The notes under the pieces are model-generated. The model was given only the letters and a program-made list of their open reading frames with translations. It had not been told where the DNA came from and did no database searches. Below, piece after piece: positions 21,655 to 49,019 of a DNA stretch of 64,000 bases; positions within the stretch are counted from its first letter, which is position 1; each line of letters opens with the position of its first letter. The DNA is from Planctomycetaceae bacterium. Lineage in GTDB: Bacteria > Planctomycetota > Planctomycetia > Pirellulales > PALSA-1355. The stretch covers positions 20,879-84,878 of the forward strand of contig PLYM01000194.1 of the NCBI GenBank assembly GCA_003153375.1, written 5' to 3'. Both the position numbers and the translations under genes were made by a program.

Positions 21655-22701
21655 TCATCTACCTGGCTTCGCTTTGTATCCCAATGCTTCGGCTTGGGCG
21701 AAATCGGCGTGGGCTTTGGCTTTCTCGTCTTTCTGCCAGTACGAGTAGCCCCGAGCATAGAAAGTGTACCCACTTCTCGGATTGATCCCAATTGCCGCTG
21801 TATAGTCGTTGATTGCCCTGTCGTGGTCGCCCTTCTCGCGGTAGGCCCAGCCACGGTTGTGGTACGCGTCGGCATCCTTCGGGTTAAGTAGGACGGCCTC
21901 GGTGAAGTCAGCGATGGCCTTGTCGAATTCACCCTTCTTGACGTAGGCCAAGCCACGATTGTAGTACGTCGTGGCATGTTTCGGATCGAGTCTGATGGCC
22001 TCATCGTAGTCAGCGAAGGCCTTGTCGAACTCACCCTTCTTTCCATAGGCATAGCCCCGCCCACAATAGACTGCGGCATGTCGTGGATTGAGCCGAATCG
22101 ACTCCGTGAAGTCAGCGATCGCCTTGTCGAATTCGCCCTTCTCTTGGTTGGCATGGCCTCGCCCCCAATATGCCTCGGCAGATTGTGGATTGAGTCGAAT
22201 GGCCTCGGTGTAGTCCGCAATCGCCTTGTCGAATTCACTCTTCATTTCATAAATCTTGGCTCGCCCCTGAAATGCTTGAAACAACTTCGGGTCGAGGCGA
22301 ATAGCGTCGGTACAATCAGCAATTGCTCTGTCAAAATCACCCTTCTGAGCATAGACGATTCCTCGGACATAGCATGCCTCGGCACCGTGCGGGTCGGGGC
22401 GATTAGCCTCCGTGCAGTCAGCCATCGCCTTGTCGAGGTCGCCGTTCCTGCCGTGGGAGTGACCCCGCCAGCAATATGCCTCGGCCATCGTCGGATCAAG
22501 CTGTATGGCTTTGTCACAGTCGGCGATGGCCTTGTCGAATTCGCCTTTTCGCAAGTAAGCTTGGCCCCGGCGGGAATACGGCTGAGCGTTATGTGGATGC
22601 AGACGAATGCCTTCGGTGTAAGCCGCGATCGCTCCATCGAAATCGCCTTTGTCCCGCAGCGAATTGCCTTGCTTTGTTGCTTCATCTTCTGGGCTACTCA
22701 T
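21655..22701 (-). CDS. tetratricopeptide-repeat protein (about 9 tandem TPRs)
   Basis: Repeating 'GEFDKAIADYTEAIRLNP...A.AY..RG.AY'. Visibly lower GC than its neighbours. Confidence 0.85.
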   Translation of the reverse strand: MSSPEDEATKQGNSLRDKGDFDGAIAAYTEGIRLHPHNAQPYSRRGQAYLRKGEFDKAIADCDKAIQLDPTMAEAYCWRGHSHGRNGDLDKAMADCTEANRPDPHGAEACYVRGIVYAQKGDFDRAIADCTDAIRLDPKLFQAFQGRAKIYEMKSEFDKAIADYTEAIRLNPQSAEAYWGRGHANQEKGEFDKAIADFTESIRLNPRHAAVYCGRGYAYGKKGEFDKAFADYDEAIRLDPKHATTYYNRGLAYVKKGEFDKAIADFTEAVLLNPKDADAYHNRGWAYREKGDHDRAINDYTAAIGINPRSGYTFYARGYSYWQKDEKAKAHADFAQAEALGYKAKPGR

Positions 22702-22788
22702 AACGAATTCTCCTACAGTGCCACCCATTGCTGCTGGCAGCGGCCATTTTCAATTGGAGCAAGTGCAAGAGATCGTTGCAAAAAGTGC

Positions 22789-23944: not shown

Positions 23945-24033
23945 AGAGGCTGGAGGCCGGAGACCGAAGGTTAGAACCTACCCGCCTCATTTTCATCCTT
24001 CATCCTTCCGCCTTCATCCTTCGTCTTCCATGC
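23945..24033. repeat. composite repeat: half-arm of the 'gaggctggaggccggagacc' family plus a 'tcatcct' heptamer element (copy A)
   Basis: 23990..24033 'ttttcatccttcatccttccgccttcatccttcgtcttccatgc' recurs at 30415..30464. Confidence 0.7.
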
Positions 24034-30074: not shown

Positions 30075-30414
30075 GAGCGTTCCCCCTTGCGATGAAAAAA
30101 CGATCCGATCCAGCCACCCGACCCCGTGTGATTAAACCGCGCGAAAAATAGAAAGTCAAGAAATTCACTTGATTGCTCGCGGGTCGCTACTGTTCGCAAT
30201 TTGGGGTGGCAAAAACCACTGCGGATGCAGCGCGAGCAGACTCGAAGCAAACTCGCTTTGACCTCGAATCACCGGCGACAACGCAAGAGCCGATTCCGAC
30301 ATGATCGCTATCGATTCGTCGTTGGGGCCCAACCCAAGCTCCTCCCGCTCCCGCGTGCAAAACGCTAGGCTGTACCAATCACCGCCACTTTGCCCTGGGC
30401 GTTGTCGCCCCTCG

Positions 30415-30464
30415 TTTTCATCCTTCATCCTTCATCCTTCCGCCTTCATCCTTCTCCTCCATGC
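30415..30464. repeat. 'tcatcct' heptamer element, copy B, ending in the ubiE start codon
   Basis: ttttcatccttcatccttcatccttccgccttcatccttctcctccATGc. The ATG at 30461 is the ubiE/menG start. Confidence 0.7.
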
Positions 30465-37952: not shown

Positions 37953-38302
37953 CAATCGGCGCATGCCTGGCGTCTTGCCTGTGGCCGCCATGATCGGTCG
38001 GCAGGCGACAGCCGCTTGCGCTGTCGTGGCGACCGTGGGCATTTTGGCGATCGCCGCTACGCCGTTTTATTACGGCCCACAAGCCGGTCCGCGCTTCCCT
38101 TTCCGGAAAGCCGGGACAGGTGTCGCTTGAACATGACGACACGATTGCGTACTGGCCGATCACGCCGGCGTGCGCTCCGCTGATAGGAAATTCAGGACTC
38201 CCTGAAAGGGATTGCACGGTCCATGGATTGGAAGGTCGATTGAACTTCTGGCTTGCCGAGCGCGCCAAAGTCCTGATCAGGGGTCGCCCGGCCAATGCCC
38301 CG

Positions 38303-38527
38303 CGACCCGCTCGTCACCCAAACCGTCCGATTCTCAAAGTCCGCTTCGCTCGTCAATTCCTCGCCCGCTCGAACGGTTACCTGTCGACTGCTCGCCGCAG
38401 GATTCGCCAAGACCAGGATTGCACCGGCGGTTCACGTCGTTCGAGAGACGATCGTGCCTCCGATTTCCCACAGCGTGGCTTGTGGCGCGAGATTCCGTCA
38501 AGCCAGCGGTAGGCGCGAGTGCTTAGC
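38303..38527 (+). repeat. diverged direct repeat 'X', copy 1
   Basis: The core 38321..38450 aligns with 45748..45880 at roughly 75-80% identity by eye. Both copies end in 'gtgcttagc'. Confidence 0.6.
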
Positions 38528-38746
38528 TCGCTGCGATCCAGTATCGGTGCGTCGGTTTGTCGGACCGACGCGGGTCAGATTGCGGACCGGACAGTCTTCC
38601 CTGCTTACTCGCGTTCAACGAATGTTCGACCGCTTGATCGATGAGATTGATTAATAGCTACCGACTTTCGCAGAGTCCCTGGTGGCGGACTTAAGATTTC
38701 GCGACTGAAGCGGACGACGCAAGCTGACGTTGGCACGCCGGGTCAG

Positions 38747-39022
38747 CCGCGGTATCAGCGATGGCTTGCCAGGCCGGTGCGAACCGGGCTGCCCGACTCA
38801 AACGAATCAGGGCGCTACGCGATGATGGGGATGGCCCTGCAACAACCCGGCTGTGGAAATGTCCCAGGTTTGAATGCCCAGCACCCGCGCGGGTGACTCG
38901 GGCCGCAGGCGGAGGTCGCCGTGTTCGACGTCGACGAACAGGGGATCGGCGGAGAGGCTGTGAAGCTCGACGCCGTAGCGTTTCTGCTGGTCGATGTGCC
39001 GCTGGCCCCATTGGGGATCGGC
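38747..39022 (-). repeat. 276-bp inverted repeat, copy 1 (3' end of the beta-helix gene plus about 60 nt downstream)
   Basis: Its reverse complement matches 45438..45713 at roughly 90% identity by eye. The encoded peptides are nearly identical. Confidence 0.85.
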
Positions 39023-41146
39023 GGGGCACCAAAACAAGTTGTAGTCGGTCTGGGTGTCTTTCAGGCGGTCGCCGGCGCCGGTGGCAAGGCTCTTGTGCTC
39101 GACGATGGGCCAATAGTCGGCACGCGGCGACCAGACGATGTTGCGCAGGATCTGGGCGCCTTCGATGGGCCAGGTGGGATTGGGTATCGAGATGTAGCCA
39201 TGGACGATGTTGGGTTTGGTGATTGGCCGGCGACTGGGGATCAGGTCGACGATGATGTTGTTGACGACGTGGTTGGCTTCGGTCATCGAGATGCCGGTTT
39301 GGGCGCTGCGGATCTTGTACAACACGTTGCCGTCGATGAGGGTCTCGTACTGGTCGTTGTCGCAGCGGATGCCCGAGGCCACGCCGTCGCCATCGAGATG
39401 GTGAATATAGTTCTGGTAGATACGATTCTCTTTGCCGGTGCCCGAAATATAGATTCCGTTGCCGTCGCCCATGGTTTGCATCACGTCGTGGATGTCGTTA
39501 TGGGCCACGAAGTTCTTGCGGCCGTGCATATACCGTTCGCGGGCCTGCCACCATTCGCGGTGTACCCGGTTCGACCCGCTGGCCGCGCTGGGCAGCGCGT
39601 TGTAGGCCGGCAAGTCGACTTCCCGCGCGCGGAAGGTTTCGTCGGCCTCGCTCGTCCAGCCCGTTCGGCCGCTGACGGTGATGCCTGAGTAGGGCATGTC
39701 GTGGACCAGATTGTGAGTCACCTGGTTTTCGCCGCTTTGCCAGACCATGATTGCGGGCGAGGCCCAGTAAATCTCTCCCACGTGATGCACCCAGTTGTTC
39801 GACACGACGTTGCGTTTGCTCTCGTCTTTCGTGCCGGGGCCGTAGCCGGCGACCAGGATGCCGACGCCTCCGACATGAGCGACCTCGTTGTCGATGACGC
39901 GGTTGTCCAAGCAGGTGAGATCCAGGCGCAGGCCCGTTCCGCTCGTGTCGACGAACCGGCAGGCCTCGACCGTGCATCCCCGGGCGCCCCGCAGACGCAC
40001 CAGCGCGCTCGGCCGATCAAAATGTTCCCACTTGTGCTGGAGTTCTCCGGGCGTGGCGCCATGCCACGGCAATCGCTGGCCGCCGGTGAGAGTGAGCCCA
40101 CGAAACACGAGACCCGTTACGGGCTTGTCGACGGGCCCGTCGTAGTCGATGTTGCCTTCGACGCGCAGCAACTCGGTGAGCAGCGGCACGTTGATGGCGC
40201 CGGAGGGCGCTTCGCGAGGCGGCCAGAGATACAGCTTCCGATCGGTGGCGCCAAAGACCCACTCTCCCGGCTCGTCGAGCACTTCCAGGATGTTTTCCAC
40301 CCAGGCGGTTTCGCTCAGGAATTTCACCCGGCCCATGGTGCGGGAGGCCGGAACCGCTGTCTTGGCCAGACCGGCCTGCTCATCCACTGAGGCCAGAGGC
40401 AACAGGCACATTTCATAGTCGCAGGACGGAATCACGCGGAGCTCCGCATTGCCGAGGTCGGGCCAGTTCTTCATGGCGCCCGAGGGGAAGGCGATTTGGT
40501 CGTGCGGGGTCTTCGCATCGGCGAACGCCACGGGCGTAAAGGGCTTGGACCAGGCCCGCCGCAGACGATTGCGCCCATCGTACAACGTCAGGACGTTCGA
40601 CAAACTCGCGGGAACATCCGCGGTCCACACCGAGTCGCGGGCGTTCTCGGGCAGTAGCGGGGAGGGATGCTGGGGCTTAGTCCAGCCAACGATCGGAACG
40701 GCCGACGTAAAGACTGGGGTCTCGTCGCCGTAGGCAGCATAGGTGATCGTGCCGCTAACAGGCGCCGAATCCTCTAGCGAAAAAACCACGGCCTCCTGGA
40801 GCCGGTACTCACCACCGCGAATCAGCACCAGGATTTCCTGCCGGTCGCCGTGCCGTTTGAACTCCCGAACCGCATCTCGAGCTCGGGCGAGCGTCGCGAA
40901 GGGACCATCGGTGCTCGCAGGATTGGGCTGTTGCAATTTTCCCGACCACCCATCAGATCCATTCACCGCGACAAAGAAGTCCGCGGTGGTTTGCCCCTTC
41001 TCGCCCGAACCGCGAGCGAGGGCGTCGGTTGGCAATCCGGCCAGCAATAGGCCACAGGCCACCAGGGCAAAAAGAAACTGACCCAAGGAACGACGCGAAT
41101 CGTTTTCTGGCCGCCGGGTCTGATGGAGTATGGCGATCTGGGACAT
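38807..41146 (-). CDS. right-handed parallel beta-helix repeat protein (pectate-lyase-fold), secreted
   Basis: 779 aa with a signal/TM segment. Ends in '...ADPLFVDVEHGDLRLRPESPA', typical of this family. Confidence 0.8.
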   Translation of the reverse strand: MSQIAILHQTRRPENDSRRSLGQFLFALVACGLLLAGLPTDALARGSGEKGQTTADFFVAVNGSDGWSGKLQQPNPASTDGPFATLARARDAVREFKRHGDRQEILVLIRGGEYRLQEAVVFSLEDSAPVSGTITYAAYGDETPVFTSAVPIVGWTKPQHPSPLLPENARDSVWTADVPASLSNVLTLYDGRNRLRRAWSKPFTPVAFADAKTPHDQIAFPSGAMKNWPDLGNAELRVIPSCDYEMCLLPLASVDEQAGLAKTAVPASRTMGRVKFLSETAWVENILEVLDEPGEWVFGATDRKLYLWPPREAPSGAINVPLLTELLRVEGNIDYDGPVDKPVTGLVFRGLTLTGGQRLPWHGATPGELQHKWEHFDRPSALVRLRGARGCTVEACRFVDTSGTGLRLDLTCLDNRVIDNEVAHVGGVGILVAGYGPGTKDESKRNVVSNNWVHHVGEIYWASPAIMVWQSGENQVTHNLVHDMPYSGITVSGRTGWTSEADETFRAREVDLPAYNALPSAASGSNRVHREWWQARERYMHGRKNFVAHNDIHDVMQTMGDGNGIYISGTGKENRIYQNYIHHLDGDGVASGIRCDNDQYETLIDGNVLYKIRSAQTGISMTEANHVVNNIIVDLIPSRRPITKPNIVHGYISIPNPTWPIEGAQILRNIVWSPRADYWPIVEHKSLATGAGDRLKDTQTDYNLFWCPADPQWGQRHIDQQKRYGVELHSLSADPLFVDVEHGDLRLRPESPARVLGIQTWDISTAGLLQGHPHHRVAP

Positions 41147-41619
41147 CCCCCTATCCTACGAGCTGGAACCGTCCGTGGAAATTGGCCTTGATGTGAACCG
41201 ATGGTATTTCCTGGTCAAGCAAGAATATCTCCGAGCGGGAAGGCCCGTGACTGAGAATGTTCAGCCACGTTGGAAACATGGACGGGCGAGATAGCGCGAG
41301 CAGTCGGCAGTGAACCGTTCGATCGGGCGAGCAGGGCATGAGCGAACCAGACTTTGAGAATCGAGCGGTATTGGTGACGGACTCAGACGCGGGGCATTTC
41401 TTGGCATTTCTTGTAAGTCATCGGTCTTTGCGGTTACCAATACCTCTGGAATGAGGTTGCGATTTGTTGGTTGACAAAGTCCACCCGTCGCGAGTCACGG
41501 CCTGATTGGACGAGGCTGGCTGAACGAGCCTGGTTGGACGGGGCTGGCTTGTCGATCATGAAGGGGGCGAGAATGCGCCCTCCTGGGATGAACTCTCTTA
41601 CTTGTGCGAGGTCTCGAAG

Positions 41620-43023
41620 ATGAACGGTCCGCGTTGTATTTTGATCGTGCTTTCCATCGCGGTGAACTGCTCGGTTGGTGGAGCGATCGCCTGGGCGCAG
41701 AATCTGACGGATCAATGGGTCGAGAAAGCGGCCGGGCCGTTGGTTGAAAAGCGAATCGCCGATGGGCTGTCGGTCGGTTACATCGAGGATGAGCATTATG
41801 GAATGGTACACCTGGGAAGCGCGAGCCCGGCGGGGAAGAATGCCAACAACTTGACCGTCTATGAGATCGGGTCGATCAGCAAGGTTTTTACCTCACTGTT
41901 GCTGGCCGATGCGGTGGTGCGGGGAGAGATTAAATTGGAAGCGGCGGCGGATGTTGCCAATGAGGCCGGGATTCGGTTGCCGTCGCATGACAGTACGCCG
42001 ATCACATGGGCTGATCTGAGCACGCATCGCTCAGGGCTGCCGCGCCTGCCCACCAATTTGCCGCTGACCGATTTCGTGAATCCGTATCGAGAATACGATT
42101 CGAAGAAGGCCGCGGCGTTCCTGAGCGAATACCAACTGCCTCGTCAACCCGGCGATTCGCAGGAATATTCCAACCTCGGGGTGTCGGTTCTTGGATACCT
42201 AGTCGCGCAGAAAGCTGGCAAGCCCTATCAACAGTTGCTGCGGGAGCGAATCGCCGAACCGCTGCGTATGACCGATTGCACCGTTTCACTGAGCAGCGAT
42301 CAGACGAAGCGGCTCGCCACGCCCCATAATAAAGTCGGCTCTGCCGCATCGCCCTGGACGTTTGCCGACCTGCCGGGCGCCGGCGGAATTCACGCCACGA
42401 TGCGTGATATGATGCGTTTCGCCAAGGCTCACTTGAATCCGCCGACCGGCACGCTCGGCGAGGCGATCGAACTGGCTTGGAAGCAACACAGCAAAGCCGA
42501 CGCATCGGCGCCCGCGATGGGCCTGGGCTGGATGATTGCGCGGGATGGTCAGACTCGTTGGCACAACGGTCAGACCGGTGGATTCCATGCGGCACTCTTC
42601 ATCAATCGCGAGCTCAAGTGCGCGGTCGTCGTGTTGTGCAACACGGCCGTATCCAACGAAATCGATCAGCTGGCGACGCAGTTGATTTTGAAAGCAGCAG
42701 GCCAGGAAGCAAAGCCGGAGCCGAGCGAGGCTTCGGACGGTGACTCGGACAAGCTGGCCATCGATGCGGCGCTGCGCAAACGGTTGGTGGGGCGTTATCA
42801 GTTGACGCCGAGTTTCATTTTCGACGTTCGTGAGGATGACGGGCGGCTGATGGTTGGTATTACCAATCAACCCACGCAGGAGGTCTATCCTGACTCTCCC
42901 ACGAAATGGTCATACCGTGGGGTCGACGCCACGCTCGAATTCAAGCTGACGAAAACCGGTCCCGCCAAGAGCCTGGTTCTCCATCAAAATGGCATCCAGC
43001 AGACTGCTCGCCGAATGAAGTGA
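41620..43023 (+). CDS. secreted serine hydrolase, beta-lactamase (class C/PBP4-like) family with a C-terminal DUF3471-like domain
   Basis: Signal peptide plus SxxK 'SISKVF', YxN 'YSN' and 'WHNGQTGG'. Confidence 0.85.
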   Translation: MNGPRCILIVLSIAVNCSVGGAIAWAQNLTDQWVEKAAGPLVEKRIADGLSVGYIEDEHYGMVHLGSASPAGKNANNLTVYEIGSISKVFTSLLLADAVVRGEIKLEAAADVANEAGIRLPSHDSTPITWADLSTHRSGLPRLPTNLPLTDFVNPYREYDSKKAAAFLSEYQLPRQPGDSQEYSNLGVSVLGYLVAQKAGKPYQQLLRERIAEPLRMTDCTVSLSSDQTKRLATPHNKVGSAASPWTFADLPGAGGIHATMRDMMRFAKAHLNPPTGTLGEAIELAWKQHSKADASAPAMGLGWMIARDGQTRWHNGQTGGFHAALFINRELKCAVVVLCNTAVSNEIDQLATQLILKAAGQEAKPEPSEASDGDSDKLAIDAALRKRLVGRYQLTPSFIFDVREDDGRLMVGITNQPTQEVYPDSPTKWSYRGVDATLEFKLTKTGPAKSLVLHQNGIQQTARRMK

Positions 43024-43084
43024 GCGCATTGAACGATCCGTGTGTCGGCTGTTGGCCTGATCGGTCAGACCGCGAGGTTTTGCG

Positions 43085-43609
43085 TTGCTGGACGAGGATC
43101 ACAAGTCACTCTTCCTGAACTGGCTGGGCGAGCATGGTTCCTCGGTCATGAAGGTGGCGCGCGCCTACACCCTTACCAGCGACGAGTGCCAGGACCTCGC
43201 CCAGGAGATTCTGCTCCAAGCCTGGCGGTCGTTGCCGAACTTCGAGGGCAAGGCCAGCGCGGCGACGTGGTTTTATCGTGTGGCACTCCATACCGCGATG
43301 AATTGGCATCGCAAGGACAAACCGCGCCGAGCCAGGCAGCAACCGCTCGTGGAAGTACAAGTCTTGGCAACCGACGGGGCCGGCAGCGCCGAGCAAGCCC
43401 AGCAGCGAGAGACCGTCGAGCAGCTCTACCAGGCAATTCACCAGTTGCCGAAAACCGATGCCGCGCTCGTGCTGCTGTATCTGGACGAACTGAGTTATCG
43501 GGAGATGGCCGACGTGTTGGGCATCTCCGAAGGCAACGTGGGCGTGAAGCTGAATCGGGCGAAAAAAGTGCTGAGCGAACTGATGAAGGGCCAGTCACAT
43601 GAACAATGA
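43085..43609 (+). CDS. ECF-type RNA polymerase sigma-70 factor
   Basis: Region 2 'DLAQEILLQAWRSLPNFEGKASAATWFYRVALHTAMNWHRK'. Region 4 'LYLDELSYREMADVLGISEGNVGVKLNRAKKVL'. TTG start. Confidence 0.85.
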   Translation: MLDEDHKSLFLNWLGEHGSSVMKVARAYTLTSDECQDLAQEILLQAWRSLPNFEGKASAATWFYRVALHTAMNWHRKDKPRRARQQPLVEVQVLATDGAGSAEQAQQRETVEQLYQAIHQLPKTDAALVLLYLDELSYREMADVLGISEGNVGVKLNRAKKVLSELMKGQSHEQ

Positions 43610-45653
43610 CGGCCTTATGGCCCCTGATACCTTGCAACAAGCCTGGCGGGCGCAATCGTCTCAGACGCGTGTCACGGTCGATCCCGACTTGCTGCTGAAG
43701 GAAGTGCAACGCTCCCAACGAACTTTCCGAGCGACGATCTTCTGGCGAGATTTTCGCGAGGTTGTGGTGGCGATCGTGCTGCTGCCGTACTGGTTTTATG
43801 CAGGCATCACGCACTCATTGCCCTGGACATGGTATCTCACCGTGCCGGCTATTATTTGGGTTGGCGGGTTCGTTCTGGTGGATCGAATGCGCCACAAGCG
43901 GAAGCCGAGTGCGCCGGGTGACCCCCTGCTAGAGAGTGTGAGCGAATCACTGACGCAGGTAGAGCATCAAATTTGGTTGCTGCGCAACGTCTTCTGGTGG
44001 TATCTATTGCCGTTCACCATTTCCATTCTGGCATTCTTTGCCCAGGTTACTTTGCAGGTCTCTCGAAACTGGTTGGAGGCTCTTGCCGCCGGGGGCTTTT
44101 CATCCGTCTTTCTTTCGGCGCTTTATTATTTCATTGATTACATCAATCAACGCGCCGTACGAACGCAGCTTGAGCCGCGACACCGGGAGTTGCTCGCGCT
44201 GCTCAAAAGTCTCAGCGACGAAACGACCAGCGAGGACTCGCTGAAACGCACGCAGAGCGTGGATAGCCCAAGGATTGTCAGGCGATGGCTCATCGTCGCT
44301 GTCTTGTGCCTCGTGACCCTCGTGGTGATTGTCCTGGCAAGCGGGTTGTTCGATTCCAGCTATGACGGGCCTCCTCGCAGCAGCGGCCCCGCCGGCGCGT
44401 CGCTGGGGAAATTGGTCACCGATCTGCGCAAGCAGAAGCATCTCGTCGGCCTCGCCGCGATGGTGACGGTCGACAGGCAAGTCGAGGCTGCCGCGGCCAG
44501 CGGGGAACGGAAGAAAAGCAGCGGGGTGCCACTGGAGATCAGCGATCGCTGGCATCTGGGAGGGATTAGCAAGAGTATCACGGCCACGATGATCGCGCGC
44601 TTGGTCGAATCGGGTCGGATGCAGTGGTCAGACACCGTCGGCGAGATTTTTCCCGAGGCCGCGACCCATGAAGAATGGAAGCCGGTCACGCTCAGGCAAC
44701 TACTGACGGACACAGCGGGCGCGCCAGCGAACTTCCCCAAAGCGGTTTGGCGCCAACGGCCCGCGCTGGGTGCCGAGTGTACCGAAGCGCGTCGAGAGGC
44801 GGTGTTGAATGTGATGGCGGATCAACCGGCATACCCACCGGGTAAAAAGTTTGCCTACTCGAATGTCGGCTACACCATTGCGGGGGCGATGGCCGAGAAG
44901 GTGACCGGCGCCACTTGGGAAGACCTGGTGAAACGCGAGGTGTTTGAGCCTTTAGGACTCACAGGTGCCGGATTTGGCCCGCCCAAGAGTGTGGACGAAA
45001 CGCTCCAGCAGCCGCGCGGTCACCGAGCGGTCCTGGTTGGGAAAGTCTCGGTGGATGACCAGGCCGATAATTCTCCCATCATTTCTCCCGCGGCCACCCT
45101 TCACATGACGCTCGATAATCTCTGCACGTTCGCCACGGAGCACCTGCGCGGCGACCGAGGCGCGGGCAAGCTGCTCTCGGCCGAGACCTACAAACGGCTG
45201 CACACACCTGAGATCAGCCAGTATGCCTGCGGCTGGATCAGGAACGAACCGAGCGACGAAATCCCCTACACGGCCTACTGGCACAATGGCTCGAACACGT
45301 TCTGGTACGCACTGGTAGCGTTCATCCCCGAAAAGAATATGGTGATCGCCGTCACCTCGAACGATGGCGACGTTGAGCAGGCCGAAGCAGCCGCCTGGGA
45401 GATCGTGAGGGCCAGCGTGAAGCAATTCAACGTCGCAGCCGATCCCCAGTGGGACCAACGCCACATCGACGACCAGCGCCGCTACGGCGTCGAGCTTCAC
45501 AGCCTCTCCGCCGATCCCCTGTTCGTCGACGTCGACCACGGCGACCTCCGCCTGCGCCCCGAGTCCCCCGCGCGGGCGCTGGGCATTCAAACCTGGGACA
45601 TTTCCACCGCCGGGCTGTTGCAGGGGCATCCCTATTACCGCGCAGCGCCATGA
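43599..45653 (+). CDS. multi-TM protein with extracytoplasmic beta-lactamase-family domain and a grafted beta-helix-protein C-terminus (putative anti-sigma/sensor)
   Basis: Overlaps the sigma gene by 11 nt. About 5 hydrophobic helices in aa 50-260. Motifs 'SKSI' (SxxK), 'YSN' and 'WHNGSN'. The last 72 aa are nearly identical to the end of the 38807..41146 product. Confidence 0.8.
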   Translation: MNNDGLMAPDTLQQAWRAQSSQTRVTVDPDLLLKEVQRSQRTFRATIFWRDFREVVVAIVLLPYWFYAGITHSLPWTWYLTVPAIIWVGGFVLVDRMRHKRKPSAPGDPLLESVSESLTQVEHQIWLLRNVFWWYLLPFTISILAFFAQVTLQVSRNWLEALAAGGFSSVFLSALYYFIDYINQRAVRTQLEPRHRELLALLKSLSDETTSEDSLKRTQSVDSPRIVRRWLIVAVLCLVTLVVIVLASGLFDSSYDGPPRSSGPAGASLGKLVTDLRKQKHLVGLAAMVTVDRQVEAAAASGERKKSSGVPLEISDRWHLGGISKSITATMIARLVESGRMQWSDTVGEIFPEAATHEEWKPVTLRQLLTDTAGAPANFPKAVWRQRPALGAECTEARREAVLNVMADQPAYPPGKKFAYSNVGYTIAGAMAEKVTGATWEDLVKREVFEPLGLTGAGFGPPKSVDETLQQPRGHRAVLVGKVSVDDQADNSPIISPAATLHMTLDNLCTFATEHLRGDRGAGKLLSAETYKRLHTPEISQYACGWIRNEPSDEIPYTAYWHNGSNTFWYALVAFIPEKNMVIAVTSNDGDVEQAEAAAWEIVRASVKQFNVAADPQWDQRHIDDQRRYGVELHSLSADPLFVDVDHGDLRLRPESPARALGIQTWDISTAGLLQGHPYYRAAP

Positions 45654-45713
45654 TTCGTGCGCGTCGGGCGGCGCGGTTCACACTGGCCCGTCCGACCATC
45701 GCTGATATCGCGG
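45438..45713 (+). repeat. 276-bp inverted repeat, copy 2
   Basis: See 38747..39022. Confidence 0.85.
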
Positions 45714-45736
45714 AAGATCGAGATTCCAATCGATAG

Positions 45737-45901
45737 ACCCTCACCATAACCGTCCGATTCTCCAAATCCGCTTCGGTCGTCCCATCCTCGCCCGCTCGAA
45801 CGGTTGACTGCCGACTGGTCGCAGCATAATTCGGCAATACCAGGATTGGTACCGCGCGGTTCACGGCGCCCGAGAGACTATGGGAGGGGCTTGTGCTTAG
45901 C
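45737..45901 (+). repeat. diverged direct repeat 'X', copy 2
   Basis: See 38303..38527. It starts about 25 nt after inverted-repeat copy 2. Confidence 0.6.
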
Positions 45902-46061
45902 CGCCATCGCCTTGCGACCCAAATCCAACCCGCCTGTGCGAACAATCATACCAGTTCAAGCGGAACCGGCTTTCGTGAGGGTATTCAAAGTCGATTGCCA
46001 TTCAGATATAAAACATGGCGTTTCTCAGGGATCGCGCGGGCAACACTGGGGAGAACGAAAG

Positions 46062-46391
46062 ATGAAAAATCTGAAAGCACTTGCGGTTTTCTCCGTCACT
46101 TTCGGAGTCTTGGGCGGCTACATGGTAGCGACCGGCACGATTTCATCGCATTACGGAGCCGATGACGGTAAATCCGCTGCAAAAACAAACGCACCGCAGA
46201 TCACCGGCGTACCGGGTTCACCTAGCGCCACGGAGACCCTCCGTGGGAAACAAATCCCCGCGCCGCCGCTGCCGTTTGGTGGCGTGATCAAGGAGACCCT
46301 CAAGGGATCCAAGACGTGGTGGCCACCGCGCATCGTGCCACCCCAGGACGCGCCGAACGTCCAGCTGATCATGACTGACGACAACGATTAA
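46062..46391 (+). pseudogene. arylsulfatase N-terminal fragment (truncated)
   Basis: Signal peptide followed by '...PPQDAPNVQLIMTDDND*'. The ORF stops right at the metal-binding 'DD' block, where sulfatases normally continue for more than 350 aa. Confidence 0.65.
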
Positions 46392-46618
46392 CCAACGGAG
46401 CGTAGCAGTTGGATCCGCGACAAAAAGCCCATAAACACACGGATTCAACGACTCCACGCCATCCGCGAAACTTCGGCCAATCGCGGCGGTTTTAGGGGGA
46501 TTAACTACACTCTGCTACACGAAGTGGTTCCCCTCGGCGGCACTGGGTGTAGGCGATGCGACCGACGTTCGCTTCGATCACCGGTGGTGTTGAATCATGC
46601 TTGGTCTCCAGCCCCCCT

Positions 46619-46660
46619 CAAGGAGCTCCCCGGACGAGTGCTCGTCGGGGGAGCTCCTTG
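46619..46660. terminator. 19-20-bp-stem hairpin downstream of the minus-strand micropeptide ORF
   Basis: caaggagctccccggacgag / ctcgtcgggggagctccttg with one mismatch. There is no U-tract, so it is not a canonical intrinsic terminator. Confidence 0.6.
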
Positions 46661-46708
46661 CTGATTACCCCAACGTGCCTTGTCGAATGACCACGAGAAA
46701 CCGCTGAG

Positions 46709-46849
46709 CTATTGGCGGTTAAAACGCCCGCGGCAGGCGCAGCGCCGTGGACACCGACAATCGTTGCGGCGGCGATGTCCGGTGGGAGTGCTCAGCCATG
46801 CAACCACGGCCAGCACGATTAAGATCAAGACGACGATAAACATGTACAT
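46709..46849 (-). CDS. candidate 46-aa membrane micropeptide with Arg/Cys-rich tail (below the ORF-track size cutoff)
   Basis: My own translation: MYMFIVVLILIVLAVVAWLSTPTGHRRRNDCRCPRRCACRGRFNRQ*. AGGAG sits 4 nt upstream of the ATG. The ORF begins 82 nt downstream of the sigma-like gene on the same strand. Confidence 0.35.
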   Translation of the reverse strand: MYMFIVVLILIVLAVVAWLSTPTGHRRRNDCRCPRRCACRGRFNRQ

Positions 46850-46931
46850 TTGGCTCCTGAGTGGGTTATTGTTGGAGGCCTGGATTTCCTAGCGATTACC
46901 GCCTTGGAACGATTGCCGAGAGGCCTGCGGC

Positions 46932-47585
46932 TCACTGTGCAGTTGGCTGATACGGGCACTGGAAACACTGAACCGCTGGGCGTATTTCCTGGAAGCTCTC
47001 CCAGCTCGTCTTCAACTCGGCGCGGATCTGACTGATCCTCGCCGAGCTCAACTTGAACTGCTGGGCTACATCGCCCGTGGTTTCACCCCTGGCCAGTGCT
47101 TTGGCAATCCGGCAATTTCTCTGGGTGAGTGAGCGAAGCCAGGTCGCCACGTCAATTCGCGCTGCCGCGATGTCCGCCGGCGTGGCACGCCGATCTTCAA
47201 CCAGTACGGCGCGCCATTCACCTTGCACTTCGTCAAACATGTCCAGCCGTTCAACAACAATCCCAAAGTCTGCATGAGCCTTTGGCGAAAGGACGTCACG
47301 ACGGTTTGGTTTCGTGCCGACTTGTCGACCGGCAATAACCTGGCGAATCGCATAATTGGCGAGCGGCGTGGCGTAGGTGACGTCGGCCTTGCCGCGGTGG
47401 ACCAGCGCTACAAATGTGCAAAAGGCATTGGCCTCTACCTCCTGCACGAGTTCGTCTCTGAGTTCGGGACGAAATCGGTGAAATGCTCGGTGCGCCTGAC
47501 GGCGAACTCTTGGCAGCATTTCGAGAAACCGTTCGTGTTCTTGCGACTTTATGACCTGATGCGGTTTCTTGATGATCGTAATCAC
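46932..47585 (-). CDS. sigma-70-like / HTH protein (regions 2- and 4-like)
   Basis: GTG start 8 nt after AAAGGAGG (MITIIKKPHQ...). C-terminal HTH 'TTGDVAQQFKLSSARISQIRAEL'. The upstream part of the 304-aa ORF looks non-coding. Confidence 0.6.
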   Translation of the reverse strand: MITIIKKPHQVIKSQEHERFLEMLPRVRRQAHRAFHRFRPELRDELVQEVEANAFCTFVALVHRGKADVTYATPLANYAIRQVIAGRQVGTKPNRRDVLSPKAHADFGIVVERLDMFDEVQGEWRAVLVEDRRATPADIAAARIDVATWLRSLTQRNCRIAKALARGETTGDVAQQFKLSSARISQIRAELKTSWESFQEIRPAVQCFQCPYQPTAQ

Positions 47586-47785
47586 GGGGACGACCTCCTT
47601 TGGGAAAGAGACCGCCCACCCGGGCGGTCGTGTAAAGAAACACAACCGCCCTGGCACACTGCCTGGGCGAACAGGGACACTCTTCAATCGGGCGCCACGA
47701 GTGCAAGAAAGAGCCCTCAGGTCAGCGCACGGCTGTATTCTGAGGGCCTCTTGGCGACTGGCACCAGGTGCTAGTCGGGCGCCGA

Positions 47786-47893
47786 GATCGACCTGTAATT
47801 CCGGGCTGGCGAGGCGTAGGCCTGCAGCGTGATATGAGTGGTGCACCCGCCAGTGAATCGTACAATGTGCAACGGCGCAAGCTGGCCGGCACG
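47786..47893 (+). repeat. ~110-bp direct repeat, copy A
   Basis: gatcgacCTgtaatt...catatgagtgg...gtgaat.g.acaatgtgc.acggcg...ggccggcacg aligns with 48098..48208 at roughly 75-80% by eye. Confidence 0.7.
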
Positions 47894-47923
47894 GACGTCC
47901 GCGAAGATGTCGGCTTGGCGAAC

Positions 47924-48055
47924 TTCTATGTTCGGATCCGCAAGCGGTCCAGCGCCAAGATCGCTCGTGCCCCTGTTGCGCGGAAGTTGGGGGAAATCTG
48001 TTGGAAGCGACTGCTTCGCTGGCAGCAAGCGCATGATGTGTTTACTGCGGCCTGA
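47924..48055 (+). pseudogene. IS110-family (DEDD) transposase C-terminal remnant
   Basis: 'FYVRIRKRSSAKIARAPVARKLGEICWKRLL' resembles the conserved C-terminal 'FY.RL...GK..KVALVAVARKLL.I.W.ML' block. No catalytic N-terminal part is present. Confidence 0.45.
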
Positions 48056-48097
48056 GATATTAAGAGGAGCACAACTGCGACGCGCTGAAGTCGGCGG

Positions 48098-48208
48098 GAT
48101 CGACGCGTAATTCTGGCACGGTGAGGCGTCAGCCTGCACCGTTCATATGAGTGGGAGTCCCCCGCCGGTGAATTGCACAATGTGCGACGGCGTATGCCGG
48201 CCGGCACG
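48098..48208 (+). repeat. ~110-bp direct repeat, copy B (contains the 12-nt palindrome tgccggccggca)
   Basis: See copy A. It lies immediately downstream of the transposase remnant's stop. Confidence 0.7.
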
Positions 48209-48701
48209 AATGGCTGACTATGAGCGCGCTTGATTCAAGCGACCAAACTCGGCTCCCGAAAAGCTAGGTGCTCCCCATCCTATATGCCAGGAAAACCACG
48301 AATCATTAAGCTGGGGCGCACTTTGCACGACGGTGCGGTTCAGCTACTTCACGCGTCGTGCGCACCACTGCAACGTGAAGTGCGCTTGCCGTTGGTAGAT
48401 GCGGACCTTCGTCGGGCTGCGGATGCCTTGAGGAAAATCGGTCACCCGCTGAAGTCTGTGACGAGCCGCGTAACGGGTTGTCCAGTCGGGCTTCTTGCCT
48501 GCAGAGACGGAAACCGCCTGCCGCAAGGCGCCCATATCGATCGACGCGAGCTGGTGATCCATAGTCTGTTGGGGTGCCATACCGCTTCAGGTCGTGACTC
48601 GCAATTGTCGTGTGCTAGCCCCTAATCAAGCGAACTCTTTGCGTTGAGTTGCGGAGAAGTTTGGGGAAAAATGAAATCCCTCGGCGTTTCTGCGGTGTTT
48701 C

Positions 48702-49019
48702 ATGAGTGTCGAAACTCGGAACATCACAGCCACGGAGGGATTTCAAGTGAAGACCAGCATACGACGACGACTGGGAGTGGTGTACTCGATCAATCAGGAC
48801 GGCAGCGGCTTCCAGCAGCTCGAGGCCTTTGCGGGCCCCAACGGCAACGTGCCCACGGGCCACCTAGTGGCCGTGGGTTCGAACTTGTACGGCGCAACGG
48901 AGAGTGACGGACCCACCCTGCCCGAGCCCAGCGCCCTCGTCCTGGCCGTGTTGGGATGTGCGGCGCTAGTTGGATGCGGCGTTCGAAATCGCAGGCGCTC
49001 AACTGCTGGCGCTGGCTGA
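48702..49019 (+). pseudogene. orphan C-terminal fragment of a PEP-CTERM protein
   Basis: 'VYSINQDGSGFQQLEAFAGPNGNVPTGHLVAVGSNLYGAT' looks like a choice-of-anchor-type repeat. It is followed by 'LPEPSALVLAVLGCAALVGCGVRNRRR'. There is no signal peptide. Confidence 0.45.

Follow-up and report, generated by a model that had tools for sequence, protein, structure and literature searches.

A chimeric gene of a Pirellulales bacterium in which a sigma factor-linked membrane hydrolase carries the copied end of a nearby beta-helix gene

How does a membrane-anchored protein of the beta-lactamase fold come to end like a right-handed beta-helix protein? The question is raised by one gene in a 64,000-nucleotide (nt) stretch of DNA, called the window here and used for all coordinates, from a Planctomycetaceae bacterium (Planctomycetota; Pirellulales; PALSA-1355; assembly GCA_003153375.1, contig PLYM01000194.1, positions 20,879-84,878, forward strand). 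This gene, an uninterrupted open reading frame (ORF) of the plus strand at 43599-45653, codes for a protein of 684 amino acids (aa) with a hydrophobic membrane N-terminal region, a PF00144 serine hydrolase domain and a tail of 71 aa. An initial annotation, made from the letters of the window, had proposed that this tail was grafted as DNA from the end of a gene coding for a 779-aa beta-helix protein and was not a shared domain. The analysis reported here confirmed the grafted gene end. We consider it likely, with a probability of about 80%, that the gene, which is paired with an extracytoplasmic function (ECF) sigma factor gene, is a lineage-specific chimera produced by illegitimate recombination and that its tail is a passenger.

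The two copies of the gene end form the single long inverted repeat that a repeat search found in the window, with arms at 38747-39022 and 45438-45713 (276 nt, 88% complementary). By direct count, 242 of the 276 nt are identical, there are no indels and the longest exact run is 56 nt. The first arm, on the minus strand, is the donor arm: it spans the final 71 codons and the stop codon of the beta-helix gene (38807-41146, minus strand), together with the adjoining 60 nt of its 3' flank. The second arm, on the plus strand, consists of the grafted coding segment (45438-45653, 71 codons and stop) followed by the copied non-coding flank of the donor (45654-45713). Pairwise alignment showed no relatedness up to 45437, then similarity from GCCGATCCCCA onwards that runs through both stop codons (45651-45653) and ends at 45713. 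The identity is 90.3% over the coding part and 78% over the 60-nt flank, which corresponds to 38747-38806 on the opposite strand. The graft is in frame with the hydrolase, (45438-43599) mod 3 being 0, and the peptide of the fusion protein across the junction reads ...KQFNVAADPQWDQR... Its 71 tail residues are identical at 63 positions to the end of the 779-aa product, and the motif SADPLFVDV..GDLRLRPESPA, the most conserved of the module, is almost unchanged. A chance match is ruled out by the BLAST E value of 7.6e-73 between the grafted stretch and the orthologous beta-helix gene in L001, one of the eight loci of relatives (L001-L008) compared here. The statements of the initial annotation about the sequence were all correct, including that the ends of the two proteins match, that nucleotide similarity begins abruptly behind a complete hydrolase domain and that it continues for about 60 nt past both stops.

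The recipient belongs to a recognizable family. On the 684-aa protein PF00144 covers residues 271-603 and profile positions 3-324 of 329 (E = 1.1e-53), so that the hydrolase domain is complete ahead of the junction; the clearest transmembrane segment lies at aa 231-249. The gene starts within the end of an ECF-type sigma factor gene (43085-43609, plus strand; Sigma70_r2 and Sigma70_r4_2), with an overlap of 11 nt, and is translationally coupled to it. Upstream, a 473-aa soluble PF00144 paralogue (41602-43023, plus strand, assigned by Pfam) is the first gene of what is a conserved three-gene cluster. The pair of sigma factor and hydrolase genes was also found in L002, L003 and L004, and in L004 the order of all three genes is kept, with beta-lactamase-like proteins of 467 and 726 aa on the two sides of the sigma factor. 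By its gene position the 684-aa protein is a putative anti-sigma-like sensor. Names attached to homologues agree with the assignment of the window to the Pirellulales. The Pirellulales sigma-linked membrane PF00144 serine hydrolases, which are labelled "CubicO group peptidase" in annotations of the Joint Genome Institute (JGI) and include the Lacipirellula limnantheis protein P0058, are 60-78% identical to the 684-aa protein over the N-terminal membrane region and PF00144, and they share with it the upstream ECF sigma gene and the three-gene synteny seen in L004.

The difference lies in how these proteins end. We compared the 120 best homologues of the 684-aa protein, namely one identical entry (P0002) and 119 non-identical ones. 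All of them can be aligned from residue 1-7 of the N-terminus, and in the 119 the alignment reaches query residues ~605-633. The tail is present in P0002 only and in none of the 119, and the possibility that hydrolase orthologues generally carry it is thereby excluded. Three kinds of end were observed instead: a stop within 0-27 residues after the aligned part, soon after "...KQFNV" (e.g. "...QFNVGADPPRREPLQGAD*"); an unrelated domain of ~110-130 aa ("SPFAAVRWQ...") to which no Pfam model corresponds; or a second, tandem PF00144 domain in proteins of ~950-1100 aa. The 684-aa protein has none of these native family ends and carries a beta-helix cap segment in their place. The expectation of the initial annotation that orthologues would end near aa 610 therefore held for the short form and failed for the forms extended by the SPFAAVRWQ domain or by a second PF00144. 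Examples of the end types are P0001, P0012, P0013 and P0023, together with forms of ~720-770 aa (e.g. P0011 and P0020); P0003, the syntenic orthologue in L004, is apparently frameshifted within its extra domain. Judged from these sequences, the C-terminus of the hydrolase family is naturally variable, and the beta-helix tail is unique to the 684-aa gene. In all the features tested save the C-terminus, the 684-aa protein is a member of the sigma-linked PF00144 family.

The tail is at home in the donor family. The 779-aa protein is a right-handed beta-helix protein of GH141-like type (Pfam Beta_helix and NosD, with a weak GH141_M match). Its AlphaFold2 model, built on a 67-row alignment, has a predicted local distance difference test (pLDDT) score of 90, and the best Foldseek match of this model is the glycoside hydrolase BT_1002 (PDB 5MQP; E = 1.7e-27, TM-score 0.70 normalised on the target). 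BT_1002 and related right-handed beta-helix proteins thus have the same fold as the donor, and the grafted tail corresponds to the C-terminal end of that fold. Every aligned beta-helix orthologue has the tail at its C-terminus, and across 67 sequences there is little or no variation at D734, P735, F737, G743, D744, R746, L747, S751, P752 and A753. As had been claimed, the ADPLFVD..GDxRL...SPA ending is native to beta-helix proteins, being conserved in these 67 sequences and absent from the hydrolase family. The grafted tail conforms to the module motif ADP[LM]FVD...GDLRL...SPA, and no Pfam model covers it. A search for the module in a library of 1.84 billion representative proteins gave 915 matches, which were C-termini of ~700-800-aa proteins, fragments, and repeated motif-level matches in giant proteins. 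When ten matches of unusual length were scanned with Pfam, six had Beta_helix, with the module behind or alongside that domain, and none was a PF00144 protein. Three of the ten had only CHB_HEX_C_1 and Fn3_assoc, the module lying too near the N-terminus for a preceding beta-helix, and P0239, the exception, had a GHL15 domain after the module. The sole Pfam domain of the 684-aa protein is PF00144, with no beta-helix before the module; it therefore stands outside the beta-helix family and carries a fragment of one such protein, the last 71 residues only, which are not predicted to fold alone. The absence of the tail from the 119 homologues, the copied flank and the presence of the tail throughout the beta-helix orthologues all support the view of the initial annotation that DNA was grafted.

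The point of the switch was located by comparing the window both with the orthologues and with the donor. L002, L003, L004 and L005 align with the native part of the 684-aa gene (43599-45437, plus strand) at ~82% nt identity, up to 45441-45447 and not beyond, and both the repeat search and the pairwise alignment place the onset of donor homology at 45438. The switch therefore lies inside a 10-nt microhomology, GCCGATCCCC (45438-45447), which encodes Ala-Asp-Pro and is common to the donor gene and to the recipient, as seen in the orthologue L002. At this place the three sequences read GGAGCCGATCCCCCAC in L002, CCCGCCGATCCCCAAT in the donor and GCAGCCGATCCCCAGT in the window, and the crossover site of L002 is GCCGATCCCCCAC. 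The junction bears the signature of illegitimate recombination and not that of homologous or site-specific exchange. A tblastn search with six orthologue C-termini detected no remnant of the native C-terminus downstream of the graft or beside the donor. In 185,579 species genomes and the JGI metagenome contigs, no match was obtained either with the exact 29-mer across the junction or with a degenerate junction pattern at the amino-acid level.

The direction of the transfer follows from L001, which is ~92% identical to the window overall. L001 is collinear with the resident copy down to 38708, 39 nt beyond the edge of the repeat, whereas its match with the graft stops at 45686. This marks the resident copy as the original. 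Over the coding part, the graft has 90.3% identity with the resident copy, but 84.7% with L001, 80.6% with L006 and 81.5% with L007, the three beta-helix outgroups, from which the resident copy is as distant as the graft. The two copies are thus sisters, and the donor was not foreign but came from within the lineage, being either its own beta-helix gene or a duplicate; a horizontal origin of the tail is ruled out, the resident copy being its closest relative. Synonymous divergence (dS) between the copies is 0.23, and a comparison of the full-length beta-helix genes of the window and L001 gives 0.35. These values indicate that the event is not recent and that ~10 coding changes have gathered on each branch.

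A mechanism can be proposed from these observations. Illegitimate recombination would have joined codon ~613-615 of the hydrolase gene to a copied beta-helix end (71 codons, the stop and 60 nt), using only the 10-nt microhomology, with loss of the native 3' end of the hydrolase. By one route, template switching, replication or repair would have jumped at the microhomology to the resident gene, which lies inverted at a distance of 6.4 kb, and copied 276 nt from it. By the other, a microhomology-mediated deletion would have taken out both the native 3' end of the hydrolase gene and the body of an additional beta-helix gene, a duplicate in inverted orientation. Both routes would yield the present sequence, and we make no choice between them. 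The join happens to be in frame, so that translation now extends across the foreign tail as far as the stop codon of the donor. In its native protein the tail packs on the end of the beta-helix; once detached, it is most likely a poorly structured passenger on the C-terminus of the hydrolase. A third candidate, an inversion by staggered breaks, is disfavoured: 38708-38746 is native beta-helix flank by comparison with L001, and the hydrolase end is not encoded beside the donor arm.

Chimeric genes formed by partial gene duplication or by illegitimate, microhomology-mediated recombination are a concept that has been reviewed (e.g. PMC3449122). The fusion behaves like a classic case of this known kind of event: part of one gene and its non-coding flank have become attached to a second gene, the donor copy still lies nearby, homology switches abruptly at a microhomology of a few bases and the product is lineage-specific. 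It differs in that the copy is inverted and lies 6.4 kb from its source, and in that a 3' end was replaced while no new 5' end was added. Literature searches turned up no specific precedent for beta-lactamase-type anti-sigma factors of Planctomycetes or for bacterial microhomology chimeras.

Inverted repeats within 3' coding ends are also a feature of shufflons and invertase switches, in which, as here, recombination between the arms would swap the tails. A switch of this type was nevertheless rejected. A Pfam scan of the nine larger ORFs between 33 and 49 kb detected no recombinase family; there is one pair of arms only, 12% diverged, and a swap of near-identical tails would change nothing of substance.

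Is the tail then of any use to the protein that carries it? It may have been kept because it binds the glycan or partner that it would bind in the GH141-like enzyme, or because it couples the sigma/anti-sigma-like sensor to that enzyme. Several observations lean this way and weigh against a mere passenger: the frame and stop have stayed intact after dS ~0.23, with no indel in 276 nt despite ~10 substitutions on the graft branch, the module's most conserved motif is nearly preserved, and the C-terminus of the hydrolase family naturally takes extra domains. When changes were polarised with the three outgroups, the graft branch had five synonymous and five non-synonymous changes and the resident branch three and six. 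Compared with the neutral expectation of ~1:3, the graft branch has an omega of ~0.33 and its ratio leans to constraint; however, with ten changes this is not significant (binomial P = 0.075), and the pairwise omega of the copies, 0.30, is about three times the value of 0.10 obtained for the entire beta-helix gene. These ratios hint only weakly at selection on the grafted copy. The exact 56-nt run (45480-45535 = 38925-38980), over which the three orthologues differ at 6-10 sites, could reflect chance or selection, but could also stem from gene conversion with the resident copy between the inverted arms. Structure prediction of the tail in both contexts, as the initial annotation had suggested, gave pLDDT values of 91-98 up to ~residue 770 in the beta-helix protein but 40-63 on the hydrolase, the latter being partly due to a thin alignment (five rows there). 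In these models the tail looks like a piece of a larger fold and not an autonomous domain, and it occurs on no other PF00144 protein. We regard a useful tail as doubtful, with some small chance of being right. More doubtful still is its specific form, in which the graft has been retained as a functional neo-C-terminus: a beta-helix cap peptide that would sit on the sensor's outer domain and bind the substrate glycan or the GH141-like enzyme. We conclude that the tail is in all likelihood a passenger and that function is the less probable alternative.

The passenger reading also has to contend with the evidence for the join itself. The fusion is present in one assembly only, on a single contig of 139,255 nt deposited in NCBI and ENA, and the join is known from assembled sequence alone; in addition, no relative keeps the pre-fusion state of the exact locus. 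The right-hand junction and the recipient's share in the microhomology are thus presumptive, being placed with the help of orthologues of ~82% identity. A chimeric contig, or a fold-back or chimeric read, might accordingly have joined the hydrolase gene to another molecule or strain, inverted duplications being a known type of amplification and long-read artefact. The copies differ, however, at 34 of 276 positions and have no indels, and third codon positions account for 12 of the 21 differences in the coding part, a pattern of evolutionary divergence and not of the fold-back of one molecule. Moreover, the left join shares only 10 nt, too short for an assembler overlap, and the right side (46001-47284) is collinear with L008, and with L001, so that a foreign insert would need two false joins. 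An artefact is unlikely, and we give it a very slim chance. It is hardly credible, finally, that the tail serves as a portable tag for sorting or secretion, or as a promiscuous domain of exported proteins, with the 684-aa protein as one more carrier. Both proteins are probably extracytoplasmic and motif-level matches (ADPLF.D...GD.RL..SPA) are frequent in giant proteins, but the window holds two copies only, full-length module matches in the library stand after beta-helix domains or in fragments and never on a PF00144 protein, neither a Pfam family over the tail nor a hydrolase orthologue with it was found, and the similarity reaches into non-coding DNA. A chimera by illegitimate recombination remains the preferred reading, in which the fusion is genuine but an ordinary scar of sloppy recombination, probably without function.

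The surroundings of the gene are a patchwork. A repeat of 100-160 nt, designated R, has three copies, 79-83% identical, each of which lies at a rearrangement boundary, or close to one, in the neighbourhood of the beta-helix gene and the hydrolase cluster. R3 (45725-45881, plus strand) begins ~12-28 nt past the graft end, depending on the copy to which it is aligned, and lies ~180 nt upstream of a sulfatase fragment; R1 (38294-38452, plus strand) lies 300 nt beyond the 3' flank of the resident gene, in opposite relative orientation; and R2 (41296-41398, minus strand) lies ~150 nt upstream of the start of the beta-helix gene. The repeat had no Rfam match and no copy in L001-L007, and a search of the JGI metagenome contigs for its 31-nt core pattern gave no exact hit. 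One possible identity is a shared promoter or leader region; another is a small element, either mobile or recombinogenic. Where the two copies of the gene end lie, scans for terminators and promoters yielded no signal above that expected from shuffled sequence. The sulfatase fragment (46062-46391, plus strand) is a truncated arylsulfatase 5' end of 109 codons with a signal-peptide-like start, which ends "...LIMTDDND*" and whose homologues are the N-termini of PF00884 sulfatases. The identical truncation was found in L008, with a DDE transposase directly to its left. One contiguous donor block made up of tail, R3 and sulfatase start, after the order of beta-helix and then sulfatase genes in L007, is disfavoured on two points: the L007 sulfatase is not homologous to the fragment, and the repeat beside the resident gene is in the opposite orientation.

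Larger rearrangements were seen in the relatives. In L001 the interval ~38.0-48.4 kb is inverted relative to the window (window ~38037-49010 versus L001:3182-12912), and 41211-46378, with the cluster of two beta-lactamase-like genes and the sigma factor gene, is missing, an IS66-family element standing in its place. The L001 junctions carry an IS66-family transposase and a helix-turn-helix (HTH) plus DDE_3 insertion sequence (IS), and across the relatives IS66-family, DDE_3 and DDE_Tnp_1 elements occur at the locus. The locus is rearrangement-prone in this clade, as the patchwork flank, the IS elements and the inversion show, which fits an accidental origin of the fusion. The right breakpoint in L001 (~49010) falls inside a small PEP-CTERM ORF (48702-49019), whose N-terminus differs between the two genomes. 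Elsewhere in the window, a 102-nt unit is repeated eight times in tandem at 21804-22644 (67-80% identity with the reference copy), inside the ORF 21655-22728 (minus strand), which looks like a gene for a repeat-containing protein. A "TTCATCC"-rich motif of 30-40 nt was also noticed at 23985-24025 and 30410-30450; it is 97% identical at L004:20564-20594, in an otherwise unrelated part of L004.

No new system or mechanism would follow from this locus unless the tail proves functional. If the tail were a functional neo-C-terminus, the expression of the sigma regulon would be tied to the activity of the GH141-like enzyme, and the 276-nt inverted arms would permit continuing gene conversion or inversion between the two genes, at which the identical 56-nt core hints. 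For annotation the case is a caution, the end of this 684-aa "serine hydrolase" being non-native, and it adds a data point on rearrangement-prone loci of the Pirellulales. Above all, it offers a clean and well-delimited bacterial example of a new protein C-terminus that would have been gained in one step from a 10-base microhomology, with donor, recipient and orthologues in plain view and an approximate age for the event.

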